Assembly: GCA_045639985.1 (NCBI GenBank)
Contig: JAZUEE010000073.1
Location: 1 to 44,269, forward strand
Source: Bacteroidales bacterium
GTDB lineage: Bacteria > Bacteroidota > Bacteroidia > Bacteroidales > WCHB1-69
Direction of reading: 5' to 3'
DNA length: 44,269 nucleotides
Shown: positions 1 through 44,269 of the stretch, in pieces
How positions within the stretch are numbered: position 1 is the first letter of the stretch
Layout of the letters: every line of letters begins with the position of its first letter
The notes under the pieces: generated by a model
The model's input: the letters and a program-made list of their open reading frames with translations, nothing else
The model's database searches: none
What the model was told of the DNA's origin: nothing
Position numbers and translations under genes: made by a program

Positions 1-141
1 GATGTGCAAATAATGGTGCGCCAATTGGCCTTGATCTACGGCCCGGACAAAGTGGCCAAAGAGATAGACCGAAAGGAACGCCGATTGATTCGCTGGATGG
101 ACAAGGAAAACAAACAATCAAAAGAATAGCGCAGTATGGTA
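1..141. repeat. Terminal direct repeat, exact copy of 44129..44269 (overlap of a circular contig)
   Basis: Direct comparison shows 1-141 identical to 44129-44269. The repeat falls inside the last CDS, so 1..129 duplicates that CDS 3' end including its TAG at 127-129. Confidence 0.95.
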
Positions 142-3142: not shown

Positions 3143-3658
3143 ATGAAAAAGTTAATCCCACGTTTAAGGTCGGTCATTGAATACAATCGCATGGAAAAGT
3201 TAACCCCACAACAAAAAGCGGCCATTGAATACAACCGCCGTTTGGCAAACAGGGAGTTTAAAGAGCCAGAAGCATTATGCGGAAAAACGCGTTATGACTT
3301 GATGATAACGCCTGAATTTGAAACCATTTTGACGGCTTATATCAACGAACAGGTGGAAACACGAACAAAGGTATTGGAAACAATCGCCGAGTTGAAGAAA
3401 AAGGGTAAAATGGTTGCCGAGAATCGCCCAACGATTGACCGCGTTATGGAATTGGGCATAATGAATGATCCGGCAGATTTTGCCGTTGCATTCGTTGATG
3501 TTGAAAATAAGCAAAGTAAATATCCGGCCGACATTCGTTTGTATATCCATCAGTTGGGGATGAAGGCATTTAATGCAACGATTGAAAAGTTCATCTGTGA
3601 TGCCAACCCGGATATGGCCGAATTACGCAAGACTGCAATGTCATCATCTAAAAACTAA
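3143..3658 (+). CDS. hypothetical protein (171 aa)
   Basis: ATG ORF 12 nt after an 8-bp hairpin (GGGTGCGG/CCGCACCC). Contains a duplicated IEYNR peptide, seen as an 18-nt direct repeat at 3175 and 3223. Confidence 0.7.
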   Translation: MKKLIPRLRSVIEYNRMEKLTPQQKAAIEYNRRLANREFKEPEALCGKTRYDLMITPEFETILTAYINEQVETRTKVLETIAELKKKGKMVAENRPTIDRVMELGIMNDPADFAVAFVDVENKQSKYPADIRLYIHQLGMKAFNATIEKFICDANPDMAELRKTAMSSSKN

Positions 3659-9547: not shown

Positions 9548-9588
9548 AGGTGGATAATGCAAAAAAGTGAATAATAAAAACAAAAAGT

Positions 9589-9619
9589 TTTGGTGTTTAA
9601 TAAAAGTTCACTATGTTTG
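9589..9619 (+). promoter_or_regulatory. Early-promoter repeat copy 2 (TTTG 9589-9592, 19-nt spacer, TATGTTTG 9612-9619)
   Basis: Aligns with copies 1, 3 and 4 across AAAAAGTTTTGGTRTTTAA and TTTGYATTCGGAAAT. Confidence 0.7.
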
Positions 9620-9644
9620 TATTCGGAAATGATAACCAAACGGA

Positions 9645-9660
9645 TGCGGCCGGTTCCGCA
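9645..9660 (+). promoter_or_regulatory. Leader hairpin variant TGCGG-CCGGTT-CCGCA, 18 nt upstream of the ATG at 9679
   Basis: Same position, 16-nt size and loop ending in TT as the other copies. The stem sequence differs but both arms change together, so pairing is kept. Confidence 0.6.
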
Positions 9661-9678
9661 ATTAACACAAACAAGATC

Positions 9679-10469: not shown

Positions 10470-10493
10470 ACAGGCCAATGCGGCCTGTTTTTG
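10470..10493 (+). terminator. Rho-independent terminator
   Basis: Stem ACAGGCC/GGCCTGT with loop AATGC, followed by TTTTTG. Confidence 0.8.
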
Positions 10494-10520
10494 TCGTAAG
10501 AAATAAAATGCCTATATTTG
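10490..10520 (+). promoter_or_regulatory. Bacteroidota-type promoter (TTTG 10490-10493, 19-nt spacer, TATATTTG 10513-10520)
   Basis: Exact consensus match. The -33 element overlaps the terminator U tract. Confidence 0.65.
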
Positions 10521-10603: not shown

Positions 10604-11821
10604 ATGTTACAAATTGAGTTACGGAAATTATCTTCTTTGAAACCGCACCCAGACAACCCGCGCAAATCAGTTCCGGGCGGCGTTGAAAAACTTGCGGAAT
10701 CAATCAAAGGCAATCCAAACTATTTCAATGCAAGGCCGATTGTGCTTTCCAATCGCACAGGCGAGTTTGTGATCATTGATGGCGAACGCAGAAGCGAAGC
10801 TGCATTGTATCTGGGCATGGAACAAGTGCCGACAATCCTCATGGAAGGATTGACATACGAAGATGAGTTGGAAATCCTTGTGAAAGGCAACACCCACACC
10901 GGCGTTTGGGATGAGGTAAAACTTGCCACCGATAAATGGAACGCGGCCAAACTCAAAGAATGGAACTGCGATGCCAAATGGAAAACCCCGGCCAAACCTG
11001 TTTCCGAAGATGATTTTGATGGCAACACGGAAAAGATAATCGTGCGCTGCAAGCCGGGCGATGTGTGGCAGCTTGGCAATCATCGTTTGATGTGCGGCGA
11101 TTCAGTCAAGTTGGAAGATGTGCAAAAGCTGATGGGGGGGGGTACAATAAAAGCTGACATGGTATTTACCGACCCGCCGTATGGCGTTTCTATTGGCGAT
11201 AAAAACAAAATGCTTAACTCCGTTCAGCGGTCGGGAAAGTGTGTTGAAAACATCGCAAATGACACCTTGACATCGGAAGAGTTATACCCTATTCTGGTAA
11301 ACGCCATGACCAATGCAAGGTTGAGTTGCAAGGATGATGCATCATATTTTGTTACTGCACCGCAAGGCGGCGAGTTGGGATTGATGATGATGATGATGAA
11401 GGATGCCGGATTGCCTGTACGCCACAATTTGATATGGCGCAAAAATAGTGCAACCTTCTCATTGGGCAGATTGGATTACGATTACCAACACGAACCGATA
11501 ATATACACGTGGACAAAATCGCACCACAATTACCGAGAAGGAAAGTATCGCACGACAATATGGGACTTTGACAAACCAAGGAAATGCGACTTACACCCGA
11601 CAATGAAACCCGTTGAATTGGTGGCCAATTGCTTGATGGATTGCACAAAAGAAAACGATGTTGTCCTTGATGTGTTCGGCGGCTCTGGTACAACAATGAT
11701 CGCCGCAGAGCAATTGAACCGAAAAGCATGTTTGATGGAGCTTGACCCACACTATTGCGATGTAATAATTGCACGATGGGAGAAATACACAGGCCAACAG
11801 GCTACAAGAATTGAAAATTAG
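10604..11821 (+). CDS. ParB-like nuclease domain fused to an N6/N4 DNA methyltransferase (405 aa)
   Basis: N-terminal ParB-type LKPHPDNPRK...IIDGERR. MTase motif IV is FTDPPYG and motif I is DVFGGSGTTMIAAEQL (beta-class order). The track start 10598 is TTG; the ATG is at 10604. Confidence 0.88.
   Translation: MLQIELRKLSSLKPHPDNPRKSVPGGVEKLAESIKGNPNYFNARPIVLSNRTGEFVIIDGERRSEAALYLGMEQVPTILMEGLTYEDELEILVKGNTHTGVWDEVKLATDKWNAAKLKEWNCDAKWKTPAKPVSEDDFDGNTEKIIVRCKPGDVWQLGNHRLMCGDSVKLEDVQKLMGGGTIKADMVFTDPPYGVSIGDKNKMLNSVQRSGKCVENIANDTLTSEELYPILVNAMTNARLSCKDDASYFVTAPQGGELGLMMMMMKDAGLPVRHNLIWRKNSATFSLGRLDYDYQHEPIIYTWTKSHHNYREGKYRTTIWDFDKPRKCDLHPTMKPVELVANCLMDCTKENDVVLDVFGGSGTTMIAAEQLNRKACLMELDPHYCDVIIARWEKYTGQQATRIEN
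11134..11142 (+). repeat. G9 homopolymer at the ParB/MTase domain junction
   Basis: Read directly as atg ggg ggg ggt. A change of one G in either direction meets a stop within 2-5 codons. Confidence 0.9.
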
Positions 11822-11915: not shown

Positions 11916-12419
11916 ATGGCAAACACAAAGTACAATGCGGAAATAGTAAAGGCGATTTGCGATGAATTGCGCAACGGCGAAAACATTGAACGTGTGTGTG
12001 TAAAGGTGGGGATAACCAAGACCACCTTTTTTGATTGGATCAAGCGCAAACCTAACTTTTCTAACGCCGTACAAAAGGCAAAGGATGAGTTCAGCAAAAC
12101 GATTGTGTCCAAGTTGGAAAAATCGTTGTGGGATGTTGCTATGGGATATTCTTACGAAGAAACAAAGACCGAGTACACAAGCGACAAGAACGGCAACCCA
12201 ATAATCAGCAAGCAGACAACCACCACGAAAAAGGTTGCGCCCAACGTGGCCGCATTGATATTTGCCTTAACGAACCGTGCGCCGGAAGAATGGAAGAATA
12301 GGCAGACAACCGAGGTAAACGCCAATGTCAAGGCCGAGAACGTGAACAAGCCAGATTTGTCGGCCATCCCGGATGAGTTGTTGGGACAGGTGTTGAACAA
12401 GATTAACGGCGGCGAGTAA
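11916..12419 (+). CDS. terS: terminase small subunit (167 aa)
   Basis: N-terminal HTH-type segment (YNAEIVKAICDELRNGENIERVCVKVGITKTTFFDWIKRKPNF) typical of small terminases. TAATG overlap with the large subunit gene. Confidence 0.7.
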   Translation: MANTKYNAEIVKAICDELRNGENIERVCVKVGITKTTFFDWIKRKPNFSNAVQKAKDEFSKTIVSKLEKSLWDVAMGYSYEETKTEYTSDKNGNPIISKQTTTTKKVAPNVAALIFALTNRAPEEWKNRQTTEVNANVKAENVNKPDLSAIPDELLGQVLNKINGGE

Positions 12420-13933
12420 TGGCAAATCTTTCTGCATTGGATTTCAAGATTGAAGGCGCACGCCGTAAATTGTTATGGTTCGCCCAATACATGAACCCAC
12501 GATTCAAGCCAACGCCGTTCCATACTGCGTATTACCGCGTGTTGGATATGTTCGCATCTGGGCAGATTCAAAACCTCATCATCCAGGCACCGCCGCAGCA
12601 TGGCAAATCGGAAGGATCAAGCCGTAATCTTCCGGCCAAGATGTTGGGAATGTTCCCGGACAAGAAAATAATCCTTTGTTCCTATGCTGCCACCATTGCC
12701 AAGGATTTCAACAGGGATGTGCAGAAGCTTATTGACACACCCGAATACAATGCCGTGTTCCCGGATACAACCTTGAATGGTTCAAACGTGGTAACGGTGG
12801 CCGCAAATAGTCTGCGAAATTCCGATGTGTTCCAGATCGTAGGCCACACGGGCGAATTTCGTGTTGTTGGCCGTGGTGGTGCGCTGACATCCAAAACGGC
12901 AGATGTCATGATATTTGATGACTTGTACAAGGATTCAAGCGAAGCAAACTCGCCGATTATCCGTGCCGGTGCATGGGATTGGTACACGAAGGTAGCACGA
13001 ACACGATTGCACAACGATTCGCAACAATTGATTGTGTTTACCCGTTGGCACCCGGAAGATATCATTGGCAAAATCATTGACAACGAACAAGTGATTGTTG
13101 TTGAGAAATGGGCAGATTTTGACAACATACCCAAGGGCGCATGGGTTCTGGTAAACTTTGAAGCAATCAAGACAAGCGACCCCACGGAAATTGACCCACG
13201 TGAAAAGGGTATTGCCCTGTGGAATGACCGCCATAGCATTGAACGATTGGAAGCGATGCGCAAGATTGACCCCGTAGGCTTTCAATGCTTGTACCAAGGT
13301 TCGCCCGGCGATGCGGCGGGCAGATTGTATCAGCCATTCAAGACGTGGGTTGATAAGGCCGATTGGGGAACATTGGTGCGCAAGGGTTGTTACATTGATG
13401 TGGCCGATGAAGGCAACGATTTCTTGGCTGGTGCGACATACGACATTTACAAGTCAACGGAACATGCGTGGAACGAACACAAGAAACGATTTGAGCCGAT
13501 TTTGTATGCGCTGATAACCGATGTCCAGTATACTGATGAGAACACCGATGTAACAACGATTACGGTGCCGCGCATGATAAACGAACAGGGTGCGGAAAAA
13601 GTATGGGTTGAGAGCAACAACGGCGGTTCGCAGTTTGAAAAGACAATCAAACGCAAGGTTCGTGCGATAACGGTGCCATTCTATCAGGGCGCAAACAAGG
13701 AAAGCCGAGTTGTTACCAATGCGCCATTTGTCAACCAATCAATCGTAATGCCGTTTGGATGGGAAACGAGATATCCAAAGTTCTACAAAGCAATTACCGA
13801 GTTTCTCCGTGCCTTTGGTGCAAACGAACACGATGATGCTGCCGATATGCTCACGGGCATCTACGAAAAGGAAATTGCAGACAACAACACAATGCCATAC
13901 GGCCACGCAAACAGGGGTGTGCGTGTTCATTAG
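12419..13933 (+). CDS. terL: terminase large subunit (504 aa)
   Basis: Walker A QAPPQHGKSEGSS, Walker B VMIFDDLYKD, C-terminal nuclease-type acidic motifs (HDDAADML). Confidence 0.88.
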   Translation: MANLSALDFKIEGARRKLLWFAQYMNPRFKPTPFHTAYYRVLDMFASGQIQNLIIQAPPQHGKSEGSSRNLPAKMLGMFPDKKIILCSYAATIAKDFNRDVQKLIDTPEYNAVFPDTTLNGSNVVTVAANSLRNSDVFQIVGHTGEFRVVGRGGALTSKTADVMIFDDLYKDSSEANSPIIRAGAWDWYTKVARTRLHNDSQQLIVFTRWHPEDIIGKIIDNEQVIVVEKWADFDNIPKGAWVLVNFEAIKTSDPTEIDPREKGIALWNDRHSIERLEAMRKIDPVGFQCLYQGSPGDAAGRLYQPFKTWVDKADWGTLVRKGCYIDVADEGNDFLAGATYDIYKSTEHAWNEHKKRFEPILYALITDVQYTDENTDVTTITVPRMINEQGAEKVWVESNNGGSQFEKTIKRKVRAITVPFYQGANKESRVVTNAPFVNQSIVMPFGWETRYPKFYKAITEFLRAFGANEHDDAADMLTGIYEKEIADNNTMPYGHANRGVRVH

Positions 13934-13937
13934 CAAG

Positions 13938-13970
13938 AACGGCCTATTTTCGGGCCGTTTCGTGCGTTTT
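13938..13970 (+). terminator. Rho-independent terminator
   Basis: Stem AACGGCC/GGCCGTT followed by a T-rich tail (TTCGTGCGTTTT). Confidence 0.7.
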
Positions 13971-13981
13971 ATGTGCGAGGT

Positions 13982-14041
13982 GGCACAATGTACCGCACGC
14001 GAGAAATAAACGCAAATACGCGCCATTTTAAGAAAAATAAC
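13982..14041 (+). promoter_or_regulatory. 60-nt conserved module copy A: palindromic box GGCACAATGTACC (13982-13994), 39 nt, then AAAATAAC
   Basis: Same 60-nt architecture at 23263, 34573 and 37642, with a shortened copy at 21074. TACATTTG (a -7-like box) follows at 14042-14049. Confidence 0.7.
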
Positions 14042-14113
14042 TACATTTGTAGTGAAAACGGCAAAGGGAAAGCCGGAACGAACTTTATTATTAACTTTCA
14101 AACGTTAAAAATC

Positions 14114-14782
14114 ATGTCTATTACTTGTCAATGTCCGGCCGCAACTGCAATCCCAGACCTTCCAAACGTTGCGTGCGCAGAATCATTCGGACAGATTCAA
14201 AAAATTGCGATTTGCCGCCTTCGTGGCGCAAATGGTGCGCTTAACTCTTTTGTGTCCGGCACACAGGGTGCGGGCGCAATTACAAAGCTTGCTTCATGGG
14301 AAACAAAGCTTGCTGCCGAGGATGGCTCAAAAATCATCGTGACCCCATTCATCAACGCACCAACTGATGGTGGCGGCGATGCTCGTTTGACAGGCGGCGG
14401 CAACGATGATCTGGGCGGTGTTCCCGATGTTCTGGGTTCAAATCCTGTTACATTCTCTGCCGTTCTGCGTGGCATCCCACAGAGTGTTGCAAAGGCTTTG
14501 AAGCAGCTTTCATGCGAGAGCAATGCCGGAAACCTTGGCGTGTTCCTCTTTGATGAGAACGGCAACATTGAGGCCATCAAGGATGAAACCACTGACACAA
14601 CCTTCTATCCAATCCCTGTACGCGCATTCTTTGTCGGCGATAAGGTTCACGGCAACTACGATGCGAAGGATAGCAACGCCATTTCATGGCAGTACATGTC
14701 CAACTATTCGGATAACCTTGCAATCGTTAAGCCGGAGTTCAACCCTCTTACCGCATTGGTAAACGGCGGTTCAGCTGCATAA
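14114..14782 (+). CDS. hypothetical, probably structural, protein (222 aa)
   Basis: Start set at the ATG at 14114 (MSITCQC...), because the track start 13973 runs through regulatory module A. It lies between terL and the portal. Gly/Asp-rich segment GGGDARLTGGGNDDLGG. Confidence 0.65.
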   Translation: MSITCQCPAATAIPDLPNVACAESFGQIQKIAICRLRGANGALNSFVSGTQGAGAITKLASWETKLAAEDGSKIIVTPFINAPTDGGGDARLTGGGNDDLGGVPDVLGSNPVTFSAVLRGIPQSVAKALKQLSCESNAGNLGVFLFDENGNIEAIKDETTDTTFYPIPVRAFFVGDKVHGNYDAKDSNAISWQYMSNYSDNLAIVKPEFNPLTALVNGGSAA

Positions 14783-18492: not shown

Positions 18493-19614
18493 ATGTCACT
18501 TATCGCAACAAGATTGCAGAATTGGCGAGTTGAGAATCCAAACTTGGACAAGAATATGACCCGCCCGTGTGAGTATGGTGCATTGGACTTTTTCATTGAT
18601 CAGACCAATGCGGCCAATTCAATCATTTCTCCCGCATTGCGTGACCGCGCATTTGCTTCTATGGGTAACACCGTTCAAATCCCTGTCATTGACTTTGATG
18701 GCGATGTTACCGTGTCAAATGTCCGTTCATGCGTGATTGAGGACAACGAGAACACCTCAAAGCTTTACACCGTAAACTGGATTACTCTTGCCGTTGGCTT
18801 TACAATGGTACCGTCATTGTACATGAACAACGAGATTTCGTACGAACACGATTTCAATCGCAAGATGGAGAAAGTTTGCCGTGCGCTTGCAAACGCAATG
18901 GATGTACAGGCCGTTGCTGCCCTTTCTGCCAACAAAACACAGGTATTCAAAGACCTGTTGTATTACACCCAATCATCAAACGCCGTACAAGTGCCATGGG
19001 TTGCACGTATGGAGTGGATGGGCGATATGGACGCCATTATGCGTGCTAACTGCTATCCGGGCATGCTGCATGTTATCGGCAACGCCGGTATTGACTCAAC
19101 AATTGCCAAGCTTGCGCAGCATGACATCTACAACGATGTTAACAAGCGCAACGAGTATGCGGGCAAAGTGTTCCACTACACAAACAACGTAGCCAACGAG
19201 CAAGGCAAGTTCGCAACCGCCTACATCGTTGAGGATGGCAACGTTGGTGTTCTTACCCGCGTAGATCGCGAAGCTCTCCGCCGTTCAAAGGCCAATTTCC
19301 ATGAGTGGGATGTGGTTCGCCTTCCATACATTGACCTTCCTGTCGGCTCTCACTATTACACATCGGTTGGCGATAACTCCCAGATTGCCGGTGCCGCAAG
19401 CGAGGACATGGTATGTACCGTTAAGGAGTATTTCGGATTCTCCGTAGATATCGCCTTTATCGTTGCATACAACTCTGCACCAAGCACCGTTGCCAACCCA
19501 ATCATCAAGGTTGAGGTTGCCGCATCAGGTTCGCTGAACCCATTTGCAACCCCTGTTGAGGTTGTAAACGGCGAGAGCAACCCGGTAAATACCAAAGAGG
19601 TTGCGGGCGAGTAA
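18493..19614 (+). CDS. major capsid protein (373 aa), positional call
   Basis: Size and position after the scaffold-like gene, followed by the strongest terminator in the genome. Confidence 0.65.
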   Translation: MSLIATRLQNWRVENPNLDKNMTRPCEYGALDFFIDQTNAANSIISPALRDRAFASMGNTVQIPVIDFDGDVTVSNVRSCVIEDNENTSKLYTVNWITLAVGFTMVPSLYMNNEISYEHDFNRKMEKVCRALANAMDVQAVAALSANKTQVFKDLLYYTQSSNAVQVPWVARMEWMGDMDAIMRANCYPGMLHVIGNAGIDSTIAKLAQHDIYNDVNKRNEYAGKVFHYTNNVANEQGKFATAYIVEDGNVGVLTRVDREALRRSKANFHEWDVVRLPYIDLPVGSHYYTSVGDNSQIAGAASEDMVCTVKEYFGFSVDIAFIVAYNSAPSTVANPIIKVEVAASGSLNPFATPVEVVNGESNPVNTKEVAGE

Positions 19615-19645: not shown

Positions 19646-19680
19646 GGGGTGGGGTATTGCCCCGCCCCTTTCTTATTTAA
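19646..19680 (+). terminator. Rho-independent terminator
   Basis: 9-bp stem GGGGTGGGG/CCCCGCCCC followed by TTTCTTATTT. Confidence 0.85.
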
Positions 19681-19713: not shown

Positions 19714-21024
19714 ATGTACAGGTTAAGAGAAATACAACAAAGGCTTTTGCCATTGGTGGGTTGGGAACAATCATTCAACCCGGAAACGGCCATCAATGAA
19801 ATGTTGACACGAAGCGAAAGCGGCCTAACATTCCAAGGTGCGCATCCGTTGTGTACATTGAACAATGTTCGTTCCATCATGCCGGATGATTATTATTTGC
19901 GTTACCCAGAATGGGTATATACAAAGACATACGCAGAGGGCGCAAAGGTAAGGCACGGCAATCGTATATGGGTCGCAACCGCAGAAAGCACCGACAAAGA
20001 ACCCATTGTGGATTCCAACTATTGGCAACCATTCAATATCGTATCCGATTACGTTGAAATGCTGATGCGCAACGGCATCAATACGGCCATTCAAAGGTTC
20101 GTACAAGAAAAGCAGCTGAGCCAAGAAACAAAGACATTGTTGGAACGCCGAACATTCTTTGATGGTGCGGCCAGATTGAAAGCCACCATTGACCCAACGG
20201 CCAAGTTGGTCGGCTTTGAGGTCGTGCCGGTGCGAGGTATGGGCGTAACTGCACGCATCAACCGCATCGGCTTGCAGATGGTAGGCGGCACAGGCACCGT
20301 GCGTTTGTACCTGTTCCATTCATCACAGGTTGCACCCGTGAAAACCCTTGATTTGGAGTTTACCAACACAAATGGCGGCTTCCAATGGTTCAACCTTGAT
20401 GCCGACCCAATATATCTGCCATACATGGGAAGCGGCAATGATTCCGGTGGCGCATGGTTCTTATGCTACAATCAAAACGACTTGCCAATGGGCATGGAAG
20501 CTTTGAACGTTTCCAAAGATTGGTCACGTGAGCCGTGCGGCACATGCAACATCGGTTCGGTTGAAACATGGCGAGAGATAACCAAGTATTTGCAAGTATC
20601 TCCGTTCTGCATTCATGCGCCGGAAGATTTTGCGGATTACCCGGAAATGTTTGACATCGCCGATGTGGCATATACCAACACACGCAATTACGGCATGAAC
20701 TGCGAAATATCCGTTGAATGCGATTTGACGGATTTCATCGTTGAACAACGCCACCTGTTCGCCCCTGTTATCCAGAAACAAGTTGCGGCAGACATATTGC
20801 GTACCATGGCGATGAACCCGGATGTGCGCGTAAACCGCAACCAATCCAACGCATCACGCATGGATATCTTGTATGAATTGGATGGTAATACCAATGCGGC
20901 AAGGCCGGGCGGCTTGGGTTACGACTTGAAGCAAGCTTACAAGGCGTTATCCATAGACACACGCGGAATTGACCGCATTTGTCTTACTTGCAACAACCAT
21001 GGTGTGAAATATCGCACGGTATAG
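19714..21024 (+). CDS. hypothetical structural-module protein (436 aa)
   Basis: ATG at 19714; the track start 19705 is a TTG codon. No motif recognised. Confidence 0.65.
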   Translation: MYRLREIQQRLLPLVGWEQSFNPETAINEMLTRSESGLTFQGAHPLCTLNNVRSIMPDDYYLRYPEWVYTKTYAEGAKVRHGNRIWVATAESTDKEPIVDSNYWQPFNIVSDYVEMLMRNGINTAIQRFVQEKQLSQETKTLLERRTFFDGAARLKATIDPTAKLVGFEVVPVRGMGVTARINRIGLQMVGGTGTVRLYLFHSSQVAPVKTLDLEFTNTNGGFQWFNLDADPIYLPYMGSGNDSGGAWFLCYNQNDLPMGMEALNVSKDWSREPCGTCNIGSVETWREITKYLQVSPFCIHAPEDFADYPEMFDIADVAYTNTRNYGMNCEISVECDLTDFIVEQRHLFAPVIQKQVAADILRTMAMNPDVRVNRNQSNASRMDILYELDGNTNAARPGGLGYDLKQAYKALSIDTRGIDRICLTCNNHGVKYRTV

Positions 21025-21073
21025 CGGTTATTTATTGCTAATTTTGGCCGTGGTGCGTTTTTCTTTGCGATAT

Positions 21074-21126
21074 GGTAAATTGTACCACCGAGAAAAGAAA
21101 CGCGCCCACGGGCCGATAAAAATGCA
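21074..21126 (+). promoter_or_regulatory. Conserved module copy D (box GGTAAATTGTACC 21074-21086, spacer 7 nt shorter)
   Basis: Box plus GAGAAAAGAAACGC...ACGGGCC...AAAAAT aligns with copy A. It ends 12 nt before the ATG at 21138. Confidence 0.6.
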
Positions 21127-22204: not shown

Positions 22205-22480
22205 ATGGGAATCGTTGAATTTGCATGTTGGTGCATCGTGGTTGGCTTGTTGGCCGCGTGGATGCTCACATTGGCTGATAAATGGGGGTGGTGTGAATGG
22301 TTGCAAGTTCACGCCCCTTGTGATTTTTTGTACAAACTCTTTATGTGCAATTTTTGTTGTTCTTACTGGTTAGGGTGTATTATTTCGCTAACTTTGTTCG
22401 TGATAATCGGCCGATGGGAAATGCTGATTGTTCCAATGATTTCAACAATGATTACACGCAAGTATTATGAAAACCGTTAA
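22205..22480 (+). CDS. hypothetical Cys/Trp-rich membrane protein (91 aa)
   Basis: Two or three hydrophobic segments. The CNFCCSYW motif resembles the CxxCxxxW of DUF1360-type membrane proteins (from memory, unverified). Confidence 0.5.
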   Translation: MGIVEFACWCIVVGLLAAWMLTLADKWGWCEWLQVHAPCDFLYKLFMCNFCCSYWLGCIISLTLFVIIGRWEMLIVPMISTMITRKYYENR

Positions 22481-23252
22481 GATTGGAAAACACGATGTGG
22501 TGTTGTACGATTCAATAGAAGAATTGCCAATTGCCAGATTCCACAAATACCAAAAGTTCCTGTTGGTTGATTCCGGGATCGGGGCAACCATGGAAGATTT
22601 TGACAAGCACATTGAAAAGGCACGCCGATTCTGCATGCTGAATGACACGGCCAACGCACAAAAGGAGTTGGACAATTTGCGCCAATGTGTGTTCATGATC
22701 CAAAATGGCATATCTCCCAAACATTTGGCCTTTGCCTGTCTGGTATTTGCAATTGACAACACCCAATGCGTTGATATTTCGGATGATGGTTTGGCAAAGG
22801 TTGTTGCAACATTTGCAGATGCACCAAATCAAGAATTGACCGACCGCATGGATTCGGTCAAAAAAAAAATAGATGCTGAAATAACATTGTACTTTCCCAA
22901 TCTCAACGAGGATTCGGATGTTAAAGATTATTACGAAAAGGTGCGCAAGCGCACGTTGTTGGTCTTGCAAAACATCATGGCCGGGGAATCACGCCCGGAT
23001 GAAACAAGCGATGTTGACCGATTGACAACGGAGTTAATTTGCTACATGCACCCACAGGTATTTAACGGCTCTGCATCGGTGGAAATACAATTTGACCGCC
23101 AATTTGAAAACCTTTGCTTGACCTTGGCTGGGCAATTGAACGTAAATCCCAAGGATTATACGGTCTTGGAGTTTTACAATGCGTTTGAATACTTGAAAGA
23201 AAAGGCCAAATCCAACGCACGGGCGCAAAAGCAAGGCCGTACAGGCCGTTAA
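22467..23252 (+). CDS. hypothetical protein in tail-assembly-chaperone position (261 aa)
   Basis: Immediately upstream of the tape measure gene. Contains an internal A10 tract. Confidence 0.55.
   Translation: MKTVKIGKHDVVLYDSIEELPIARFHKYQKFLLVDSGIGATMEDFDKHIEKARRFCMLNDTANAQKELDNLRQCVFMIQNGISPKHLAFACLVFAIDNTQCVDISDDGLAKVVATFADAPNQELTDRMDSVKKKIDAEITLYFPNLNEDSDVKDYYEKVRKRTLLVLQNIMAGESRPDETSDVDRLTTELICYMHPQVFNGSASVEIQFDRQFENLCLTLAGQLNVNPKDYTVLEFYNAFEYLKEKAKSNARAQKQGRTGR
22860..22869 (+). repeat. A10 homopolymer inside 22467..23252
   Basis: Read directly as gtc aaa aaa aaa ata. A9 gives an immediate TAG; A11 reaches TGA within 6 codons. Confidence 0.9.
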
Positions 23253-23262
23253 ACATCGCAGA

Positions 23263-23322
23263 CGTACAATTTACCCTTTTTGAAATAAAACGCCGTTATA
23301 CGGCAAATTTTAAGAAAATAAC
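23263..23322 (+). promoter_or_regulatory. 60-nt conserved module copy E (box CGTACAATTTACC, inverse orientation of the copy D box), ending 3 nt before the tape measure ATG
   Basis: Same 39-nt spacing to AAAATAAC. GAAATAAAACGCC and GCCGTTATAC are shared with copies A and C. Confidence 0.7.
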
Positions 23323-23325
23323 ACC

Positions 23326-26300
23326 ATGGACAATCCAAACCCAATTTTTTACCGCGATTTGGTCACGCCGGACAATTCAATTACCACGTTGATTGGTCAA
23401 TTGGAAACCTTGATTGGCAAATATGGCGAAGCCAAACAAAAGATACAGGGCGATGCCGCGCAGTTGGCAAAAGCAATGGAAAATGTATCATCGGCCACCG
23501 AGGAACAACGCAAGGAAATACAATTGGTAACAACGCAATCGGACAAGTTGGCCGAAGAATACAAGAAGGTTGCCGAAGAGGAAAGGCGTGCCAACCTGTT
23601 GTTGCAAGCATCCAACAAGGCCAAGCGAGAGCAAACACAAATAGATAAATTGATCGTGCAGTTGACAAACGCCGAAGCCGGGTCATACAATCAATTGTCT
23701 GCGCAGTATCGTTTGAACAAGATACGATTGAACGAAATGAGTGATGCCGAAAGGCGCGGAACAGAAGCCGGAAGGCAATTGGAAACCGAAACGCGCAAAA
23801 TATATGAACGCATGAGTGAGTTGCAGAAGGCAACAGGCAAATATACGTTAGAGGTCGGCCATTACGAAAATGCCATGAGGGCATTGCCGGGGCCGTTGCG
23901 TTCATTTACACAGGGATTGAGCCAGATGGGCAACCAATTGGTTACAATCGGCAAAAGTGACATACCATTGGCCGCAAAAGCAATGCAAGGGTTTTCAACC
24001 GTTGCATTTGGTGCTTTGGGTATCGTAATGTCATTTGTGCGTTACTTTACAAGCGCAATGAAAACGATGCGCGAGTTTGAACAAGCCAACGCCGACTTGT
24101 CAACCATTCTGGGCGTGAACGTGAAAGATATGAAGGCGTTGACCGATTCGGCATTGTCTTTGGGTCGTTCAACCGAATACGCGGCATCACAGGTAACGCA
24201 GTTACAAACAGAGTTGGCAAAGCTTGGTTTTGGTCAAGGTTCAATCATCGCCATGCAGAAATACGTGTTGCAGTTCGCAACGGCCACAGGCGCAAATTTG
24301 GCCGAAGCGGCATCCGTTGCCGGTGCAACATTGCGTGCTTTCAACCTCACAAGCGCAGACACCGAAGATGTGTTGGCAACATTGGCCGTAGCAACAAACA
24401 ATTCGGCGTTGTCGTTTGACAAAATACGTGATTCAATCGGCACCGTGTTCCCTGTTGCAAATGCTTACGGCCTTTCCGTGAAAGATACCACGGCATTGTT
24501 GGGTGCATTGGCTAATGCCGGATTTGATGCATCAAGTGCGGCCACGGCAACACGCAATATCCTGTTGAACTTGGCAGATGCTAACGGCAAATTGGCAAAA
24601 CGTTTGGGCGGCACCGTAAGCACGTTTGATGACATAATGAATGCGCTTATAAAGTTGCGTAAAGAGGGTGTTTCGCTGAATGAAATGTTGGAGATCACCG
24701 ACAAACGTAGTGTTTCTGCTTTCTCCAACTTTGTATCGGGTGCGGAAAGCGCACGCGAATTGCGCCAAAGTCTGGAAGATGTATCCGGGGAACTTGACCG
24801 CATACAAAGCGAAAGGTTGAACACCGTGGAAGGTTCAACAAAGCTTTTGAACTCTGCGTGGGAAGGTCTTACGTTGGCCTTCCAAAAGTCAAACGGCGCA
24901 ATGAAAGAAACAATTGATTGGATGACCAAGTTGATTAACAAAACCCAACAATTGTTGTTCCCTACGGAAACATTCATATCGGAAGAAGCCGACAAGTTTA
25001 CGGCACAATTCCAAGACTTTTATGCGAAGAATGGCGGCGAAGCTGCCAAGGCATACATAAACACACTCACGAAACAATTTGAGGAATGGGATAAAAAGGC
25101 TGGACAGGAAGCCGGGCGCGAACCGATATTGAATCGTTGGTTGGGCATCGGCAAGAAACAGGAAGCGGCCAAGGCGGCTGCATCAGCTTTGCCCGCCATA
25201 CGGCAAGCGGCAAGTGTCGTTTTGATGCAGATTGAGAATGACACCAAAGAAGCCGCAGACCGTGCCGCACGCGCAGAGGAACAGGCCGCACAGGATGCCG
25301 CCAACAGGGCAAGCGAGTTGACAAAGGAACAAAAGAAGGAGTTGGAAAAGCAGATGCGCCAACGCATCGCAGACCGAAAAGCCGTTGTTGAATCCATAAA
25401 CCTGGAGATTGCCGTAACCGCCGCCGGAACGGATAAGATGTTGGCATTGCGCCAAGATAAGATTGAAGCGCAACGCCAATTGGAGTTGGAACAAAACCGC
25501 CAGAAGGTGGAAAGCGAAAGGCAAGATGAAGCGGCCATCAATGCCAAGTACGACAAGCAATTGTTGGATGATAAAACGGCGTATTACAACGAGCTTTCCA
25601 AGCTGCGTGAAAGTTCTTTGCAAGCCGAGTTAAACGGCATCAATCTTACTCTTGCCAACACCAAAAAGGGAACAAGCATGGAACTTGCGTTGCGCTTGGA
25701 TGCAATCGGCAAGCAACGTGAAATAGAGTTGGAAAAGAATAAGCAATTGAAAGTGGAGTTGCGCCAAGATGAAGCGGCCATCAATGCGAAATACGATGCC
25801 ATGGTGCGCGACACAACAATTGATTTCCATACCAATTCGGCAATGGAGTTGTTGAATATACAACAGGAGTTGGCGGCATCCGAATTTGACTTGCTGAACA
25901 AGAACGAACGCCAAAAGACCCAATTCCGTTTGCAACAGGAGAAAGAACGTTTGCAAAAGATCCTTGAACTGAACAGGATGAACGGAAAGGACTTGACCGC
26001 CGAACAGGTGGCCACAATCCAGAATCAAATTGCGGCCATTGACAAGGTAAGCAAAACAACCCCATTTAAGAACTTGTATGAGGTTTTGGGTATCGGCCTT
26101 AACGATGAGCAGCAAGAAGCCATGAACACCGTTATAAGCGAAACGATGAACAATGTTTCCGACCTCATCAACATGTGGGTGCAAGAAGCCGATGCAGCCA
26201 TACAGGCGGCAAATGCCAAGGTTGATTCAGCACAACGTGCGTTGGATGCCGAGATAGAAGCACGAAATAATGGTTATGCCAACAACGTTATTCAGGCGCA

Positions 26301-26955
26301 GAAGGAATTGGAACTTGAAAAGCAGAACCAACAAAAGGCCATTGAAGAAAAGAAGAAGGCGCAGAAGGTGCAAATGGCTTTGGATACCATAACACAGGCA
26401 TCAAGCCTTATCACGGCATCCGCAAATATCTGGTCAAGCCTTTCGGTCATTCCTTATGTCGGCCCGATATTGGCGGCAGCGGCATTGGCCACCATGTGGG
26501 GTTCGTTTGCCGGTGCCAAGATCAAGGCCGCGCAGATGGCAAGCAACGCCGAGCAATATGGCGAAGGTACGGTTGAATTGCTGCAAGGCGGTTCGCATGC
26601 ATCCGGCCACGATATTGACTTGGGAACAAAGGCAGATGGTACAAAACGCCGTGCCGAGGGTGGCGAATATTTTGCCGTTATCAACAAGCGCAATTCACGC
26701 AAATATGGTTCAATCATCCCGGATGTTATCAATGCTTTCAATGATGGCACATTTGCCGACAAATACCAGAAGGCAAACGCAGACATGGCCGGAATGGCCT
26801 TTGCCATGGTGGGTGCGCCCGGCACCGATGTAAGCACATTGGAACGTGGCGTGGATGCCATACGCAAACAAGGCGAACGAATGCGATATGTTGATGGAGA
26901 AGGCAACACCATTGTTGTTTACAAGAATGTAACACGTAAAATACTGAAAGGATAA
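23326..26955 (+). CDS. tail tape measure protein (1209 aa)
   Basis: Size, long helical repeats, and a central hydrophobic, Ala/Gly-rich segment typical of tape measure proteins (LGRSTEYAASQVTQLQTELAKLGF...ATGANLAEAASVAGATLRAFNL). Confidence 0.85.
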   Translation: MDNPNPIFYRDLVTPDNSITTLIGQLETLIGKYGEAKQKIQGDAAQLAKAMENVSSATEEQRKEIQLVTTQSDKLAEEYKKVAEEERRANLLLQASNKAKREQTQIDKLIVQLTNAEAGSYNQLSAQYRLNKIRLNEMSDAERRGTEAGRQLETETRKIYERMSELQKATGKYTLEVGHYENAMRALPGPLRSFTQGLSQMGNQLVTIGKSDIPLAAKAMQGFSTVAFGALGIVMSFVRYFTSAMKTMREFEQANADLSTILGVNVKDMKALTDSALSLGRSTEYAASQVTQLQTELAKLGFGQGSIIAMQKYVLQFATATGANLAEAASVAGATLRAFNLTSADTEDVLATLAVATNNSALSFDKIRDSIGTVFPVANAYGLSVKDTTALLGALANAGFDASSAATATRNILLNLADANGKLAKRLGGTVSTFDDIMNALIKLRKEGVSLNEMLEITDKRSVSAFSNFVSGAESARELRQSLEDVSGELDRIQSERLNTVEGSTKLLNSAWEGLTLAFQKSNGAMKETIDWMTKLINKTQQLLFPTETFISEEADKFTAQFQDFYAKNGGEAAKAYINTLTKQFEEWDKKAGQEAGREPILNRWLGIGKKQEAAKAAASALPAIRQAASVVLMQIENDTKEAADRAARAEEQAAQDAANRASELTKEQKKELEKQMRQRIADRKAVVESINLEIAVTAAGTDKMLALRQDKIEAQRQLELEQNRQKVESERQDEAAINAKYDKQLLDDKTAYYNELSKLRESSLQAELNGINLTLANTKKGTSMELALRLDAIGKQREIELEKNKQLKVELRQDEAAINAKYDAMVRDTTIDFHTNSAMELLNIQQELAASEFDLLNKNERQKTQFRLQQEKERLQKILELNRMNGKDLTAEQVATIQNQIAAIDKVSKTTPFKNLYEVLGIGLNDEQQEAMNTVISETMNNVSDLINMWVQEADAAIQAANAKVDSAQRALDAEIEARNNGYANNVIQAQKELELEKQNQQKAIEEKKKAQKVQMALDTITQASSLITASANIWSSLSVIPYVGPILAAAALATMWGSFAGAKIKAAQMASNAEQYGEGTVELLQGGSHASGHDIDLGTKADGTKRRAEGGEYFAVINKRNSRKYGSIIPDVINAFNDGTFADKYQKANADMAGMAFAMVGAPGTDVSTLERGVDAIRKQGERMRYVDGEGNTIVVYKNVTRKILKG
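25522..25787 (+). repeat. Internal tandem duplication in the tape measure gene (period 243 nt = 81 aa)
   Basis: The 23-nt exact repeat CAAGATGAAGCGGCCATCAATGC occurs at 25522-25544 and 25765-25787. At protein level, LALRQDKIEAQRQLELEQNRQKVESERQDEAAINAKYD matches LALRLDAIGKQREIELEKNKQLKVELRQDEAAINAKYD. Confidence 0.85.
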
Positions 26956-34368: not shown

Positions 34369-34423
34369 TCGTATATTTGCGTTGCTCATCAATCATGAAT
34401 ATCTTTACGATAGTTAGAACTTA

Positions 34424-34453
34424 AAGGCGGCATTGAATAAATGCGGCCTTTTT
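34424..34453 (+). terminator. Rho-independent terminator (imperfect stem AAGGCGGCAT/ATGCGGCCTT, then TTTTT)
   Basis: 10-bp stem with one G-G mismatch, followed by a U tract. Confidence 0.65.
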
Positions 34454-34491
34454 GTGTCTTTGCAACCGAGTTTGATTACTACCATAATCCA

Positions 34492-34530
34492 ATCGGGGTT
34501 CATTGTGAAACGCGCCCCGATTTTCCGTTT
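34492..34530 (+). terminator. Second terminator (ATCGGGG 34492-34498 / CCCCGAT 34515-34521, then TTTTCCGTTTT)
   Basis: 7-bp stem, 16-nt loop and U-rich tail. Confidence 0.6.
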
Positions 34531-34572
34531 TGGCTAAAATTGGGCTATTTGGCGCACTTTTGCGTATGGGAT

Positions 34573-34632
34573 GGCACAATGTACCGCAGAAGGAATAAAA
34601 AGCGAAATACGGCCATTTTTCAAGAAAATAAC
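34573..34632 (+). promoter_or_regulatory. 60-nt conserved module copy B (box GGCACAATGTACC 34573-34585)
   Basis: Identical box and 39-nt spacing to AAAATAAC. Lies 76 nt upstream of the -33 element of early promoter copy 3. Confidence 0.7.
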
Positions 34633-34660
34633 ATTTTTGCGTATAATTAAACAAAAAAGT

Positions 34661-34691
34661 TTTGGTATTTAAGGGAATAGTGTTACCTTTG
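34661..34691 (+). promoter_or_regulatory. Early-promoter repeat copy 3 (TTTG 34661-34664, 19-nt spacer, TACCTTTG 34684-34691)
   Basis: Consensus match and alignment with copies 1, 2 and 4. Confidence 0.7.
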
Positions 34692-34720
34692 CATTCGGGT
34701 TGAGGGTTCAACCACACCGG

Positions 34721-34736
34721 CCGGGCGGGTTCCCGG
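34721..34736 (+). promoter_or_regulatory. Leader hairpin CCGGG-CGGGTT-CCCGG, 16 nt upstream of the ATG at 34753
   Basis: Same formula, followed by ATAAACA. Confidence 0.7.
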
Positions 34737-34752
34737 ATAAACACCAAAGGTT

Positions 34753-37377: not shown

Positions 37378-37436
37378 TGCGATGAACAAAGATAGTAATT
37401 TTTTATATCTTTGCGATGGATTCCATAAGCTTTTCG

Positions 37437-37474
37437 CCCCAGATGTTCGGCCATAGCATCTGGGGTTTATTTTT
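37437..37474 (+). terminator. Rho-independent terminator
   Basis: 9-bp stem CCCCAGATG (37437-37445) / CATCTGGGG (37457-37465), followed by TTTATTTTT. Confidence 0.8.
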
Positions 37475-37477
37475 GGG

Positions 37478-37529
37478 GGTTCACGGAAATTTGCAACCGG
37501 TTCACAGGGGGTTCACGCAACCGGTTCAC
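37478..37529. repeat. Iteron array: four GGTTCAC repeats at 37478, 37499, 37510 and 37523
   Basis: GGGGGTTCACG and CAACCGGTTCAC alternate twice. Spacings are 21, 11 and 13 nt. AACCGGTT is an 8-bp palindrome. Confidence 0.8.
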
Positions 37530-37570
37530 GCATGGATTGTCGTATTTTTTTGTTATGGGGTTATCGTTTT

Positions 37571-37582
37571 CGTAACGTTACG
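37571..37582. repeat. 12-bp perfect palindrome CGTAACGTTACG
   Basis: Self-complementary sequence read directly, within the intergenic region. Confidence 0.8.
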
Positions 37583-37641
37583 AATATGGTATGGCCATGG
37601 TGGCCGCAAACAAGGCCGTACAGGGCATTTGATGTTCCGGC

Positions 37642-37701
37642 GGCACAATGTACCATGCGCCCATACAAATGCCGTTATACACAAAATTCCCCAAAAATAA
37701 C
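37642..37701 (+). promoter_or_regulatory. 60-nt conserved module copy C (box GGCACAATGTACC 37642-37654)
   Basis: Identical box and 39-nt spacing to AAAATAAC. Lies 76 nt upstream of the -33 element of early promoter copy 4, the same geometry as copy B. Confidence 0.7.
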
Positions 37702-37729
37702 TGATTGTATAAAAATTAGTGCAATTTAT

Positions 37730-37760
37730 TTTGGTGTTTAAATAAAGTTTTGTATTTTCG
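37730..37760 (+). promoter_or_regulatory. Early-promoter repeat copy 4 (TTTG 37730-37733, 19-nt spacer, TATTTTCG 37753-37760)
   Basis: Aligns base for base with copy 1. The -7 box has one mismatch to TAnnTTTG. Confidence 0.6.
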
Positions 37761-37784
37761 TGGTCGGAAATAGTAACCAACGCG

Positions 37785-37800
37785 CCGGGGCGGTTCCCGG
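37785..37800 (+). promoter_or_regulatory. Leader hairpin CCGGG-GCGGTT-CCCGG, 18 nt upstream of the ATG at 37819
   Basis: Identical to the hairpin at 396-411. Confidence 0.7.
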
Positions 37801-37818
37801 ACTAAAAAACACAAGATT

Positions 37819-38102: not shown

Positions 38103-38333
38103 ATGTTTAGAATAGAAGAAGCGATTGCCCGCGCAAAGACACAGGGCAACAAGGTAATGAAAAGGGATATTGCTGCCCGCCTGTGGCCGGATAGCACCCC
38201 GGCCGCACAACAGGTCAATATGACCAAGTTGTGTACGGGCAAGACATCTGGCGTGAAACCCGAGTGGGTTGCCATTGTCTGCGAAATGACAAATTGTACT
38301 GCGGATTATCTTTTCGGTTTGAGCAATGAGTGA
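38103..38333 (+). CDS. XRE-family helix-turn-helix transcriptional regulator (76 aa)
   Basis: KRDIAARLWPDSTPAAQQVNMTKLCTG...ADYLFGLSNE is the typical Cro/CI-type HTH with the YLFGL C-terminus. Confidence 0.8.
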   Translation: MFRIEEAIARAKTQGNKVMKRDIAARLWPDSTPAAQQVNMTKLCTGKTSGVKPEWVAIVCEMTNCTADYLFGLSNE

Positions 38334-43413: not shown

Positions 43414-43700
43414 TGGAAAAGGTGTTCAAGGGTTGCCGATGCCCGCAAGGCAAAGCGGATGTTGATTCGGCGCAATGCCGTTCATGCGGCCATTATGTCC
43501 GCGACCTGGGAACATTCATTGTGTGTTCGTGTCCGGCACAGGAAAAGGCCAACGAAAAGGAACAAAGTATTGCATCCGTAACTCCAAAAAAGGCCACCAA
43601 GAAACCTGCAAGCACGAAACAAAAGGCCAAAGGAAAGGCCAAGCAGACAAAGACCGCAAACAAGGCCAAAAAGCGCGGAAGGCCGCGTAAGGCAAAATAA
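43413..43700 (+). CDS. Cys-rich protein with Lys-rich tail and AT-hook (95 aa)
   Basis: N-terminal CRC...CRSC...CSC. C-terminal KKATKKPASTKQKAKGKAKQTKTANKAKKRGRPRKAK contains the RGRP AT-hook core. Confidence 0.6.
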   Translation: MEKVFKGCRCPQGKADVDSAQCRSCGHYVRDLGTFIVCSCPAQEKANEKEQSIASVTPKKATKKPASTKQKAKGKAKQTKTANKAKKRGRPRKAK

Positions 43701-43749
43701 GGCCCGTACAGGGCGTTTTGTAAGTTAAACGATAAAATATACCACCACG

Positions 43750-43962
43750 ATGGGAACATTACCTCAAATAGAAAATTCGGCACAAATAACGCCGGAAGCC
43801 TTCAAGCAATACGTGCAGTATGTCGCAGATATGAGATTGAACCAGAACCGATGGTTCAACACGCACAATTACGATGCGCTGCGCATAAGCAAGGAAATGG
43901 AAAAGAACATTGACTGCTTCAATCAGCGAATATTGGATATTAACCCCACATTGTTTGGATAA
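43750..43962 (+). CDS. hypothetical protein (70 aa)
   Basis: ATG ORF. No motif recognised. Confidence 0.6.
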   Translation: MGTLPQIENSAQITPEAFKQYVQYVADMRLNQNRWFNTHNYDALRISKEMEKNIDCFNQRILDINPTLFG

Positions 43963-44257: not shown

Positions 44258-44269
44258 CGCAGTATGGTA
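44129..44269. repeat. Terminal direct repeat, exact copy of 1..141
   Basis: Direct comparison of both ends. Confidence 0.95.

Follow-up and report, generated by a model that had tools for sequence, protein, structure and literature searches.

A composite intergenic cassette centered on a 13-bp dyad box may mark expression-unit boundaries in a lineage of B40-8/PDS1-like siphoviruses

Why should one 13-bp palindromic box recur at several gene junctions of a single phage genome? The question is raised by contig JAZUEE010000073.1 of assembly GCA_045639985.1, deposited as a Bacteroidales bacterium, whose full length of 44,269 nt we refer to as the window. An exact terminal direct repeat of 141 nt (window 1-141 = 44129-44269), most likely the assembler's overlap of a circular or circularly permuted genome, indicates that the window is a complete phage genome. 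Judged from its sequence, the phage is a member of the B40-8/PDS1/AS73P1 siphovirus group, a group regarded as virulent; its portal protein shares 48-64% identity with the portals of Bacteroides phages B40-8 and B124-14, Parabacteroides phage PDS1 and Alistipes phage AS73P1. An initial annotation, made from the sequence alone, had proposed that the box heads a 60-nt late promoter or activator site that doubles as an operator over early promoters. Our own reading, to which we give a probability of only about 0.4, is that the box lies at the center of a composite, roughly 105-bp junction cassette that marks the boundaries of transcription or expression units in one lineage of B40-8/PDS1-like siphoviruses. 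We regard it as a boundary-marking regulatory cassette rather than a simple late promoter, because one copy lies back to front and others are not accompanied by a promoter.

The repeat itself stands up well. The box GGCACAATGTACC is found exactly on the plus strand at 13982, 34573 and 37642, as had been noted, and its consensus GGYACAWTGTRCC gives 3 matches where 0.01 are expected. When the box is joined to the motif downstream of it as box-N39-AAAATAAC, with up to three mismatches allowed, there are 5 matches versus 0.00 expected from 100 dinucleotide-preserving shuffles (plus strand 13982, 23263, 34573 and 37642; minus strand 21027-21086), so the 39-nt spacing holds. Together with the recurrence of the element in related phages, described below, this bears out its description as phage-specific, intergenic and non-random. 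AAAATAAC by itself is not rare (8 matches versus 4.4 expected), and four of its six plus-strand matches are module ends. The variant boxes at 21074 and 23263 are present at two to three mismatches, and the shared spacer blocks GAAATAAA(A)CGC, ATACGG and GCCGTTATAC were recovered as well. The 21074 copy had been described as 7 nt shorter than the others, an impression that arose because it was read on the wrong strand: the minus strand carries a full copy at 21027-21086 with the exact 39-nt spacing. GGYACAWTGTRCC is the version of this lineage; at the level of the family the box is an AT-rich pseudo-palindrome, GATAAATTATACC or GGTATAATTTACC. The box is GC-richer in the window than in the family, and this GC-richer form is lineage-specific.

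Alignment of the copies, together with repeat finding in the window, defined a unit of about 105 nt rather than 60, the added part being a GC hairpin and T-tracts 5′ of the box. The hairpin (hp1), often GGCCGTACAGGCC or GCCCGTTTTCGGGC, and the T-tracts are followed by the box, then by an A-tract part that carries AAACGCC and AAATACG and often a small second hairpin (hp2), and finally by TTTT-N3/4-AAAAATAAC, 38-39 nt past the box. We then searched the 44 kb with an nhmmer profile built from related phages alone, with no window sequence in it. Matches with an E-value (E) below 0.01 comprised seven module sites plus a weaker opposite-strand echo of the 23263 copy; further opposite-strand echoes were seen at 21074 (E 0.012) and, with a second profile, at 13982. 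These echoes stem from the dyad symmetry of the module.

All credible genes of the window are on the plus strand, in the order terS (11916-12419), terL (12419-13933), a homologue of the B40-8 virion protein MP2 (222 amino acids, 14114-14782), portal, scaffold-like protein, capsid, tail genes and tape measure (23326-26955), and we name the modules by their place in it. The post-terL copy (13942-14041, plus strand) has its box at 13982-13994, AAATACG at about 14015-14021 and AAAATAAC at 14034-14041 (profile match 13943-14045, E 6.4e-8); its hp1 (13937-13960, plus strand), directly 3′ of the terL stop at 13933, is a GC hairpin with a T-run that resembles an intrinsic terminator both in folding and in a terminator scan (9 pairs, tail CGTGCGTTTT). 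The head-tail copy (21022-21125) is on the minus strand, with its box at 21074-21086 and its 60-nt core at 21027-21086 (profile match 21118-21026, E 2e-5). The pre-tape-measure copy (23223-23322, plus strand; profile match 23233-23323, E 2.6e-15) has its box at 23263-23275 and hp2, GCCGTTATACGGC, at about 23292-23304; gene 22467-23252 ends with its stop codon inside the module's 5′ hairpin, and the tape-measure ATG at 23326 follows 3 nt beyond the module end, just as annotated. Two plus-strand copies belong to the early region, one at the late-to-early boundary (34532-34633, box 34573-34585; profile match 34533-34635, E 1.8e-12) and one further on (37602-37701, box 37642-37654; profile match 37608-37704, E 9.6e-5).

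The count of five copies in the initial annotation was too low, as the profile from other phages adds two sites. The first (43690-43790, plus strand; profile match 43691-43790, E 6.5e-5) is a partial copy. The spacer 43701-43749 holds its hairpin GGCCCGTACAGGGC, its T-run and its box GATAAAATATACC (43731-43743), and its 3′ part overlaps the start of gene 43750-43962. The second (39737-39838, plus strand, with a box-like TGGACAATGTGCC at 39777-39789) is a look-alike within the C-terminal coding tail of a PD-(D/E)XK nuclease gene (38522-39859): it scores E 1.2e-6 when window paralogues are included in the profile, and without them only 39801-39838 is matched, at E 3.4e-4. This coding tail is about 70% identical over 94 nt, in register, to the window modules at 23229 and 37608, and its peptide is conserved at the protein level in PDS1 and AS73P1, which marks it as coding sequence that resembles the window's own modules. 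The resemblance suggests that the end of the nuclease gene and an intergenic cassette have exchanged sequence, or that one descends from the other.

Is the cassette a peculiarity of this one genome? With TerL, nuclease and virion-protein queries we drew 47 loci from IMG/VR, in which the profile recognized 62 modules that do not overlap; of these, 48 are unique. In their exact window form, box and spacer have no match in IMG/VR; profile-defined modules do occur at structural-gene junctions. Three positions in the structural region recur, each with a fixed orientation: post-terL (plus), head-tail (minus) and pre-tape-measure (plus). The head-tail copy lies between the gene of PHROG 8189 and the first tail gene, and its orientation is opposite to that of all genes, in the window as in each relative with such a copy; pre-tape-measure copies end 2-20 nt 5′ of the ATG. 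In 31 loci anchored by the gene that precedes the tape measure, the pre-tape-measure copy occurs 28 times and the head-tail copy 5 times, and the post-terL copy is present in 6 of 30. Plus-strand orthologues of the window's post-terL copy are found in the loci L001, L002, L004, L005, L015, L016, L018 and L044. Position and orientation are conserved in phages with flanking proteins of 46-88% identity. PDS1 and AS73P1 each have a pre-tape-measure copy and a copy at the late-to-early boundary (1711-1808 and 10870-10947, respectively), that of PDS1 lying 3′ of two terminators and 59 nt upstream of a canonical early promoter; in B40-8 the profile found no module copy. Spacers with a module measure about 75-115 nt, versus 34 nt for the head-tail spacer of PDS1 and 11 nt for the pre-tape-measure spacer of B40-8, neither of which therefore contains one. 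There are also lineage-specific additional copies, at 2544 and 5630 in L002, at 4700 in L004, and at 37602 and 43690 in the window. One pre-tape-measure variant is found on about 60 IMG/VR contigs; we did not count the 71 viral matches with the 39-nt gap as independent evidence, since nearly all come from one abundant species. A contig of a metagenome-assembled genome labeled Eubacteriales (L151, 2114-2215) has a full module with -7 box and leader hairpin, and is probably a contig of this phage family binned into the genome of a non-host.

These comparisons also bear on whether the box is recognized as such. Box identity is 0.67 within a genome, 0.61 between orthologues and 0.57 in other pairs, a trend that the flanks do not show, and the three modules that share the identical 13-mer are only about 55% identical otherwise. 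Identical 13-mers in modules so divergent, and the value of 0.67 against 0.61, point to sequence-specific recognition of the box.

Where the modules stand relative to promoters bears on the original proposal. The Bacteroidota sigma-A promoter reportedly (Bayley et al. 2000) consists of TTTG at -33 and TAnnTTTG at -7. The plus strand of the window holds 26 matches to TAnnTTTG, 12 of them in 4.7 kb of spacers, and full promoters with both elements are found at 364, 9612, 10513, 34684 and 40597. A further -7 element, TACATTTG (14042-14049, plus strand), is fused to the end of the post-terL module. No -33 TTTG was found 19-21 nt upstream of it; that position is taken by the AAATACG of the module, or by AAATACGCG in orthologues, and every post-terL orthologue has TAnATTTG immediately after AAAATAAC. 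Between the -7 element and the ATG of the MP2-like gene at 14114 lies a leader stem-loop, CGGC-AAAGGGAAA-GCCG (14059-14075, plus strand), which in the form CGGC-AAAGGGnnA-GCCG is kept in nine relatives, with compensatory changes to TGGC..GCCA in L002 and to GGGC..GCCC in PDS1, and which may be a separate cis-regulatory RNA. The whole arrangement of module end, -7 element, leader hairpin and MP2-like gene is kept in nine related phages, so the post-terL copy is plausibly the upstream half of an activator-dependent promoter for a structural gene. The -7 box of the MP2 promoter also occurs without a module, in PDS1, AS73P1 and B40-8, and the leader hairpin is kept in the first two of these (about 25108-25125 in L048, which is PDS1, and about 34333-34349 in L050, which is AS73P1).

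The idea of a late promoter or activator site fits the post-terL junction, whereas the head-tail copy is inverted and has no promoter, and no -7 element follows the pre-tape-measure copies in the window and mostly elsewhere. The copies at 23263, 34573 and 37642 have no TAnnTTTG immediately after the module. In the pre-tape-measure copies of L021/L028 type, the 3′ edge of the box itself forms a perfect TAnnTTTG, TACGTTTG or TACATTTG. The likeness of the post-terL copy to a sigma-A promoter consists in its ending at a perfect -7 element, and the early promoters of the phage fit the full consensus; the module differs from such promoters in having no -33 TTTG, in the absence of a -7 element from most copies, and in the rarity of AAAATAAC before the -7 element of ordinary promoters.

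We scanned 185,579 genomes for TTTT-N3/4-AAAAATAAC-TAnnTTTG and found at least 120 loci. The chromosomal matches listed are mostly from Bacteroidota and stand before ordinary genes such as those of tRNAs, with a full module in one among the at least 120, the L151 contig mentioned above; since this number is about what chance would yield among millions of AT-rich promoters, we rejected the notion of a generic host promoter architecture. In an unbiased sample from the listed loci, AAC seldom stands directly 5′ of the -7 element (in 1.9% of 53 canonical promoters and in 0.6% of 1016 -7 motifs). A host-type promoter could thus accommodate the module's 3′ end, which is nevertheless no generic promoter feature. 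Two other promoter types were considered and set aside. TGGCAC-N5 resembles the -24 element of a sigma-54 promoter, but its GC is shifted by one base from the proper register, and variant boxes have no GG. For a minus-strand promoter, the reverse complement of AAAAATAAC matches five of six positions of a -7 motif in 69% of copies; it usually lacks the diagnostic G, however, and there are no minus-strand genes.

At the early promoters the modules stand at a fixed distance. Four canonical early promoters (TTTG-N19-TAnnTTTG), at 340-420, 9585-9665, 34655-34745 and 37725-37805, form a repeated promoter-leader cassette with a conserved leader hairpin of the CCGGGGCGGTTCCCGG type and an ATG about 65 nt later. 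Only two of the four have a module upstream. Downstream of the 34532 copy the -33 TTTG is at 34661-34664 and the -7 element, TACCTTTG, at 34684-34691; downstream of the 37602 copy the -33 TTTG is at 37730-37733. In agreement with the earlier observation of equal distances, 75 nt separate the end of the box from TTTG in both. Early-region copies, those of relatives included, combine a stem-loop with a canonical promoter 28-59 nt downstream, and the window shares with PDS1 and AS73P1 a copy that precedes the first early promoter. Upstream of both early-region modules we also noticed perfect -7 elements with no -33 element, TATATTTG at 34372 and TATCTTTG at 37406, right after the preceding genes; the regions 34372-34530 and 37395-37600 contain terminator-like hairpins (e.g. 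37436-37466) and no convincing open reading frame (ORF), and could encode short non-coding transcripts.

Does the unit act as a folded nucleic acid? Over 37 diverse modules RNAalifold gave 0 consensus pairs, and likewise none within the post-terL class or the pre-tape-measure class, and Rfam has no match at any module copy. The eight orthologues of the head-tail class, on the other hand, share a 16-pair hairpin centered on the box. Both partners vary in 14 of the 16 pairs, the paired share of cells is 76.6% versus 56.8% in shuffles (0 of 500 reach 76.6%), and the covariation score is 0.558 versus 0.256, with slid controls at or below 0.25. The window's head-tail copy is a long near-perfect palindrome centered on the box, with fold z-scores of -2.7 and -4.6, and single-sequence z-scores of head-tail copies reach -6.8. 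In six of the eight, coding-strand RNA is slightly more stable than antisense RNA. At hp2, GGGCAAATTGCCC is replaced by GAGCAAATTGCTC and GGGTAAATTACCC (L054 and L088, pre-tape-measure modules on IMG/VR contigs), double changes that keep the pairing in near-identical modules of one abundant gut phage species. On these comparative grounds, parts of the unit appear to be selected for dyad symmetry or hairpin formation, while the invariant columns (TTTT, AAAAATAAC and the box core) look like constraints at the level of sequence. L021-type pre-tape-measure copies fold no better than shuffles (z about +1). A terminator-like hairpin with T-run is present in hp1 of the post-terL copy and at 1718-1745 in PDS1, and is weak or absent in the 23223, 34532 and L021-type copies. 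We rejected a tRNA-like or other known RNA (ARAGORN found only tRNA-Gln and tRNA-Leu genes elsewhere, and Rfam nothing at the modules), and also a terminator/antiterminator attenuator, in which the alternative pairing partner downstream of the terminator would be in the wrong order.

The T-tracts and A-tracts are spaced by about 10-11 nt, and module DNA is predicted to be intrinsically curved. Under the Bolshoy-Trifonov wedge model, curvature peaks at 25-39 degrees per 30 bp in all seven copies, compared with a genome mean of 10 degrees; values of 25 degrees or more occur in 15% of random 105-nt windows (Mann-Whitney p 4e-8).

Could a cognate protein be found among the phage's own products? 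The ORF at 38103-38333, which had been named as an XRE-type helix-turn-helix (HTH) regulator, matches nothing in Pfam, PHROGs, NCBIfam or PDB sequences, so that label finds no backing there. None of the scanned ORFs (about half of some 70) encodes a repressor-like HTH protein. As for a phage sigma factor, the position annotated as such in PDS1 corresponds to the small terminase (Sf6-type) in the window, and no sigma factor was found.

How do the competing explanations fare against this evidence? That each structural copy is a late promoter or activator site, and that the same bound protein is an operator-type repressor of the adjacent early promoters, strikes us as unlikely; the nearest parallel to such a scheme is p4 of phage phi29. 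This model, the one first proposed, explains one copy well: the post-terL module joined in nine phages to a -7 element with no -33. It can also draw on a box center about 66 nt upstream of the expected start site, on the two copies equidistant upstream of early promoters and on the perfect TAnnTTTG made by the 3′ end of the L021/L028-type box. It fails on the inverted head-tail copy and on the promoter-less pre-tape-measure copies, that of the window and most others, which end 2-20 nt before the ATG; moreover, the MP2 promoter of PDS1, AS73P1 and B40-8 exists without the module, and no activator candidate was found among the window proteins scanned. A role in RNA or single-stranded DNA, with hairpins of late transcripts that process, stabilize or attenuate the message and so set cistron ratios in the manner of REP-type stabilizers, is in our view equally doubtful. 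The covarying 16-pair head-tail hairpin with its z-scores to -6.8, the coding-strand bias in stability and the double compensatory hp2 variants (GAGC..GCTC and GGGT..ACCC) in near-identical genomes speak for such a model, but this support is confined to the head-tail class and hp2. No consensus structure emerged family-wide, post-terL or pre-tape-measure, the L021-type copies have fold z-scores no better than shuffles, stems leave the exact 13-mer and the fixed-distance AAAATAAC unexplained, and, since one copy is inverted, no single sense-strand RNA motif fits all copies.

We think it less likely still that the unit is a recombination cassette with little regulatory function, similar to promoter-early stem-loops (PeSLs) or to miniature inverted-repeat transposable elements (MITEs), whose palindromic repeat offers homology for module shuffling. 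PeSLs, composite terminator/promoter repeats, have been implicated in shuffling (PMC4122927, PMC2839356), and presence/absence polymorphism at the same junctions, lineage-specific additional copies, repeated units of module plus early promoter, and the look-alike in the nuclease coding tail with its hint of sequence exchange would all fit. However, orthologous copies keep position and orientation at about 50% protein identity, and outside the box the copies within a genome are no more alike than orthologues, which argues against recent spread; the strongly conserved columns (TTTT, AAAAATAAC, box core) imply purifying selection. The unit has an internal dyad GGCGTTtAAA..TTTaAACGCC and, in many copies, AAAATAA at both ends, though neither of these marks a consistent terminus. 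Terminal inverted repeats joined with a target-site duplication, as in a MITE, are not clearly seen, and no empty-site/filled-site pair with a duplication was found among the compared phages. A replication origin, a parS site and a pac site were set aside, the copies being dispersed and their sequence unlike those sites.

The boundary-marking cassette that we favor would work as follows. The 5′ hairpin and T-run would end or attenuate the incoming transcript, and the curved, AT-rich core with its dyad box would be a platform for a putative dimeric DNA-binding protein of the phage or host, the outcome being set by this platform and by what adjoins the module. After terL, the module would be the upstream half, activator-binding or UP-like, of a promoter that has no -33 element and drives the abundant MP2-like virion protein; it would insulate or modulate canonical early promoters at the late-to-early boundary; and at the head-tail and pre-tape-measure junctions, it would tune downstream expression as an attenuator or hairpin and not start transcription. 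Several findings count against this reading. Among the window's proteins that were scanned, there was no activator, sigma factor, verified HTH protein or box-binding protein. The 5′ hairpin is a convincing terminator in some copies only, and in none of the L021-type pre-tape-measure copies. The head-tail covariation and compensatory hp2 variants indicate that part of the signal is selected as nucleic-acid structure rather than as a binding site in duplex DNA; the box shows only a weak sign of concerted evolution, and the curvature is a model prediction only. Finally, the cassette is conserved yet dispensable at each junction, since PDS1, AS73P1 and B40-8 manage the same junctions without a module at some of them.

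A more specific proposal, which we hold to be improbable, is that a dedicated, sequence-specific architectural protein of this phage group binds the dyad box in curved cassettes at every operon junction, as a temporal switch resembling that of phi29. The putative protein would activate the -33-less structural promoter, insulate or repress early promoters, and tune read-through within the late operon. In phi29, the dimeric regulator p4 acts on inverted repeats in curved DNA, activating the late promoter A3 and repressing the early promoters A2b and A2c. The window is similar in that a dyad site in predicted curved A/T-tract DNA lies upstream of a late structural promoter with no upstream consensus element, and in that module copies also lie upstream of early promoters. 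It differs in that no p4-like protein or regulator was found among the window proteins scanned, the copies are dispersed rather than gathered in one divergent control region, and the genes are on one strand.

Other known repeats resemble the module in part. Our literature search on B40-8/B124-14-type phages turned up nothing relevant and no description of the module, in line with the initial annotation, which knew of no described Bacteroidota phage late-promoter motif of such form. Among the nearest described elements are the PeSLs of T4-like myoviruses, cassettes in which terminator and promoter are combined (Arbiol et al. 2010, PMC2839356; Comeau et al. 2014, PMC4122927). PeSL and module are both short, composite, repeated intergenic units in which a stem-loop of terminator character is combined with promoter elements, and both lie between gene blocks and are conserved within lineages, with sequences that vary between lineages and presence/absence differences among relatives. 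PeSLs carry a complete early promoter and sit in hyperplastic early-gene regions, whereas the module adjoins a -7 element in one copy only and its most conserved copies are in the structural operon, one of them inverted; nor do the passages of PMC4122927 considered here describe a counterpart of the central dyad box and fixed 39-nt spacer. The SAS/ESAS repeats of Cluster K mycobacteriophages are a 13-bp repeat found between genes in 11-19 copies; these directly precede start codons, nearly all of them in the same orientation, and a role in translation initiation has been suggested, although their function is still unknown (Pope et al. 2011, PMC3203893). Both these and the module's box are conserved 13-bp intergenic repeats, partly with imperfect inverted repeats, that do not occur in the host genome and that keep their place among the genes from one related phage to the next. 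The sequences are unrelated, however, and the module is a unit of about 105 nt with A/T-tract phasing that is next to an ATG only before the tape measure, its other copies being at least 72 nt from a start or inverted. A functional analogy, as with p4 of phi29, is offered by the stoperators of mycobacteriophage L5 (mentioned in PMC3203893), 13-bp intergenic sites at which a repressor blocks elongation. They are likewise scattered in short intergenic operon spacers and mostly in one orientation, but they are asymmetric and serve a lysogenic repressor, whereas the module's box is dyad-symmetric and part of a larger unit.

Some features of the window away from the modules are worth recording. Directly 3′ of the capsid gene (18493-19614) is the strongest terminator-like hairpin of the structural region (19646-19668, GGGGTGGGG..CCCCGCCCC plus T-run). 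The gene at 10604-11821 codes for a fusion protein in which a ParB N-terminal domain is joined to an N6/N4 DNA methyltransferase; the full canonical promoter upstream of it, at about 10485-10520, probably also serves terS and terL. Genes for tRNA-Gln(ttg) and tRNA-Leu(caa) are at 710-781 and 1278-1360, and AS73P1 has tRNA-Gln(ttg) too. A tandem duplication of 48 nt (3143-3238, 77% identity), in which an ATG opens each copy, forms the start of the ORF at 3143-3658.

The present evidence does not establish a new mechanism, and if the cassette is only a recombination scar or a hairpin stabilizer, its interest is local. Even so, the B40-8/B124-14/PDS1 group counts standard Bacteroides faecal-indicator phages among its members, along with some of the commonest siphoviruses of the human gut virome; to our knowledge, almost nothing is known about the timing of their gene expression, and the control of phage transcription in the phylum is essentially uncharted. 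The cassette provides a sequence signature for this phage lineage and its module boundaries, and concrete sites at which to map transcript ends, to pull down a binding protein, and from which to derive parts for regulated or insulated expression in Bacteroides and Alistipes. The abundance of the group in the gut makes the cassette worth following up by experiment.

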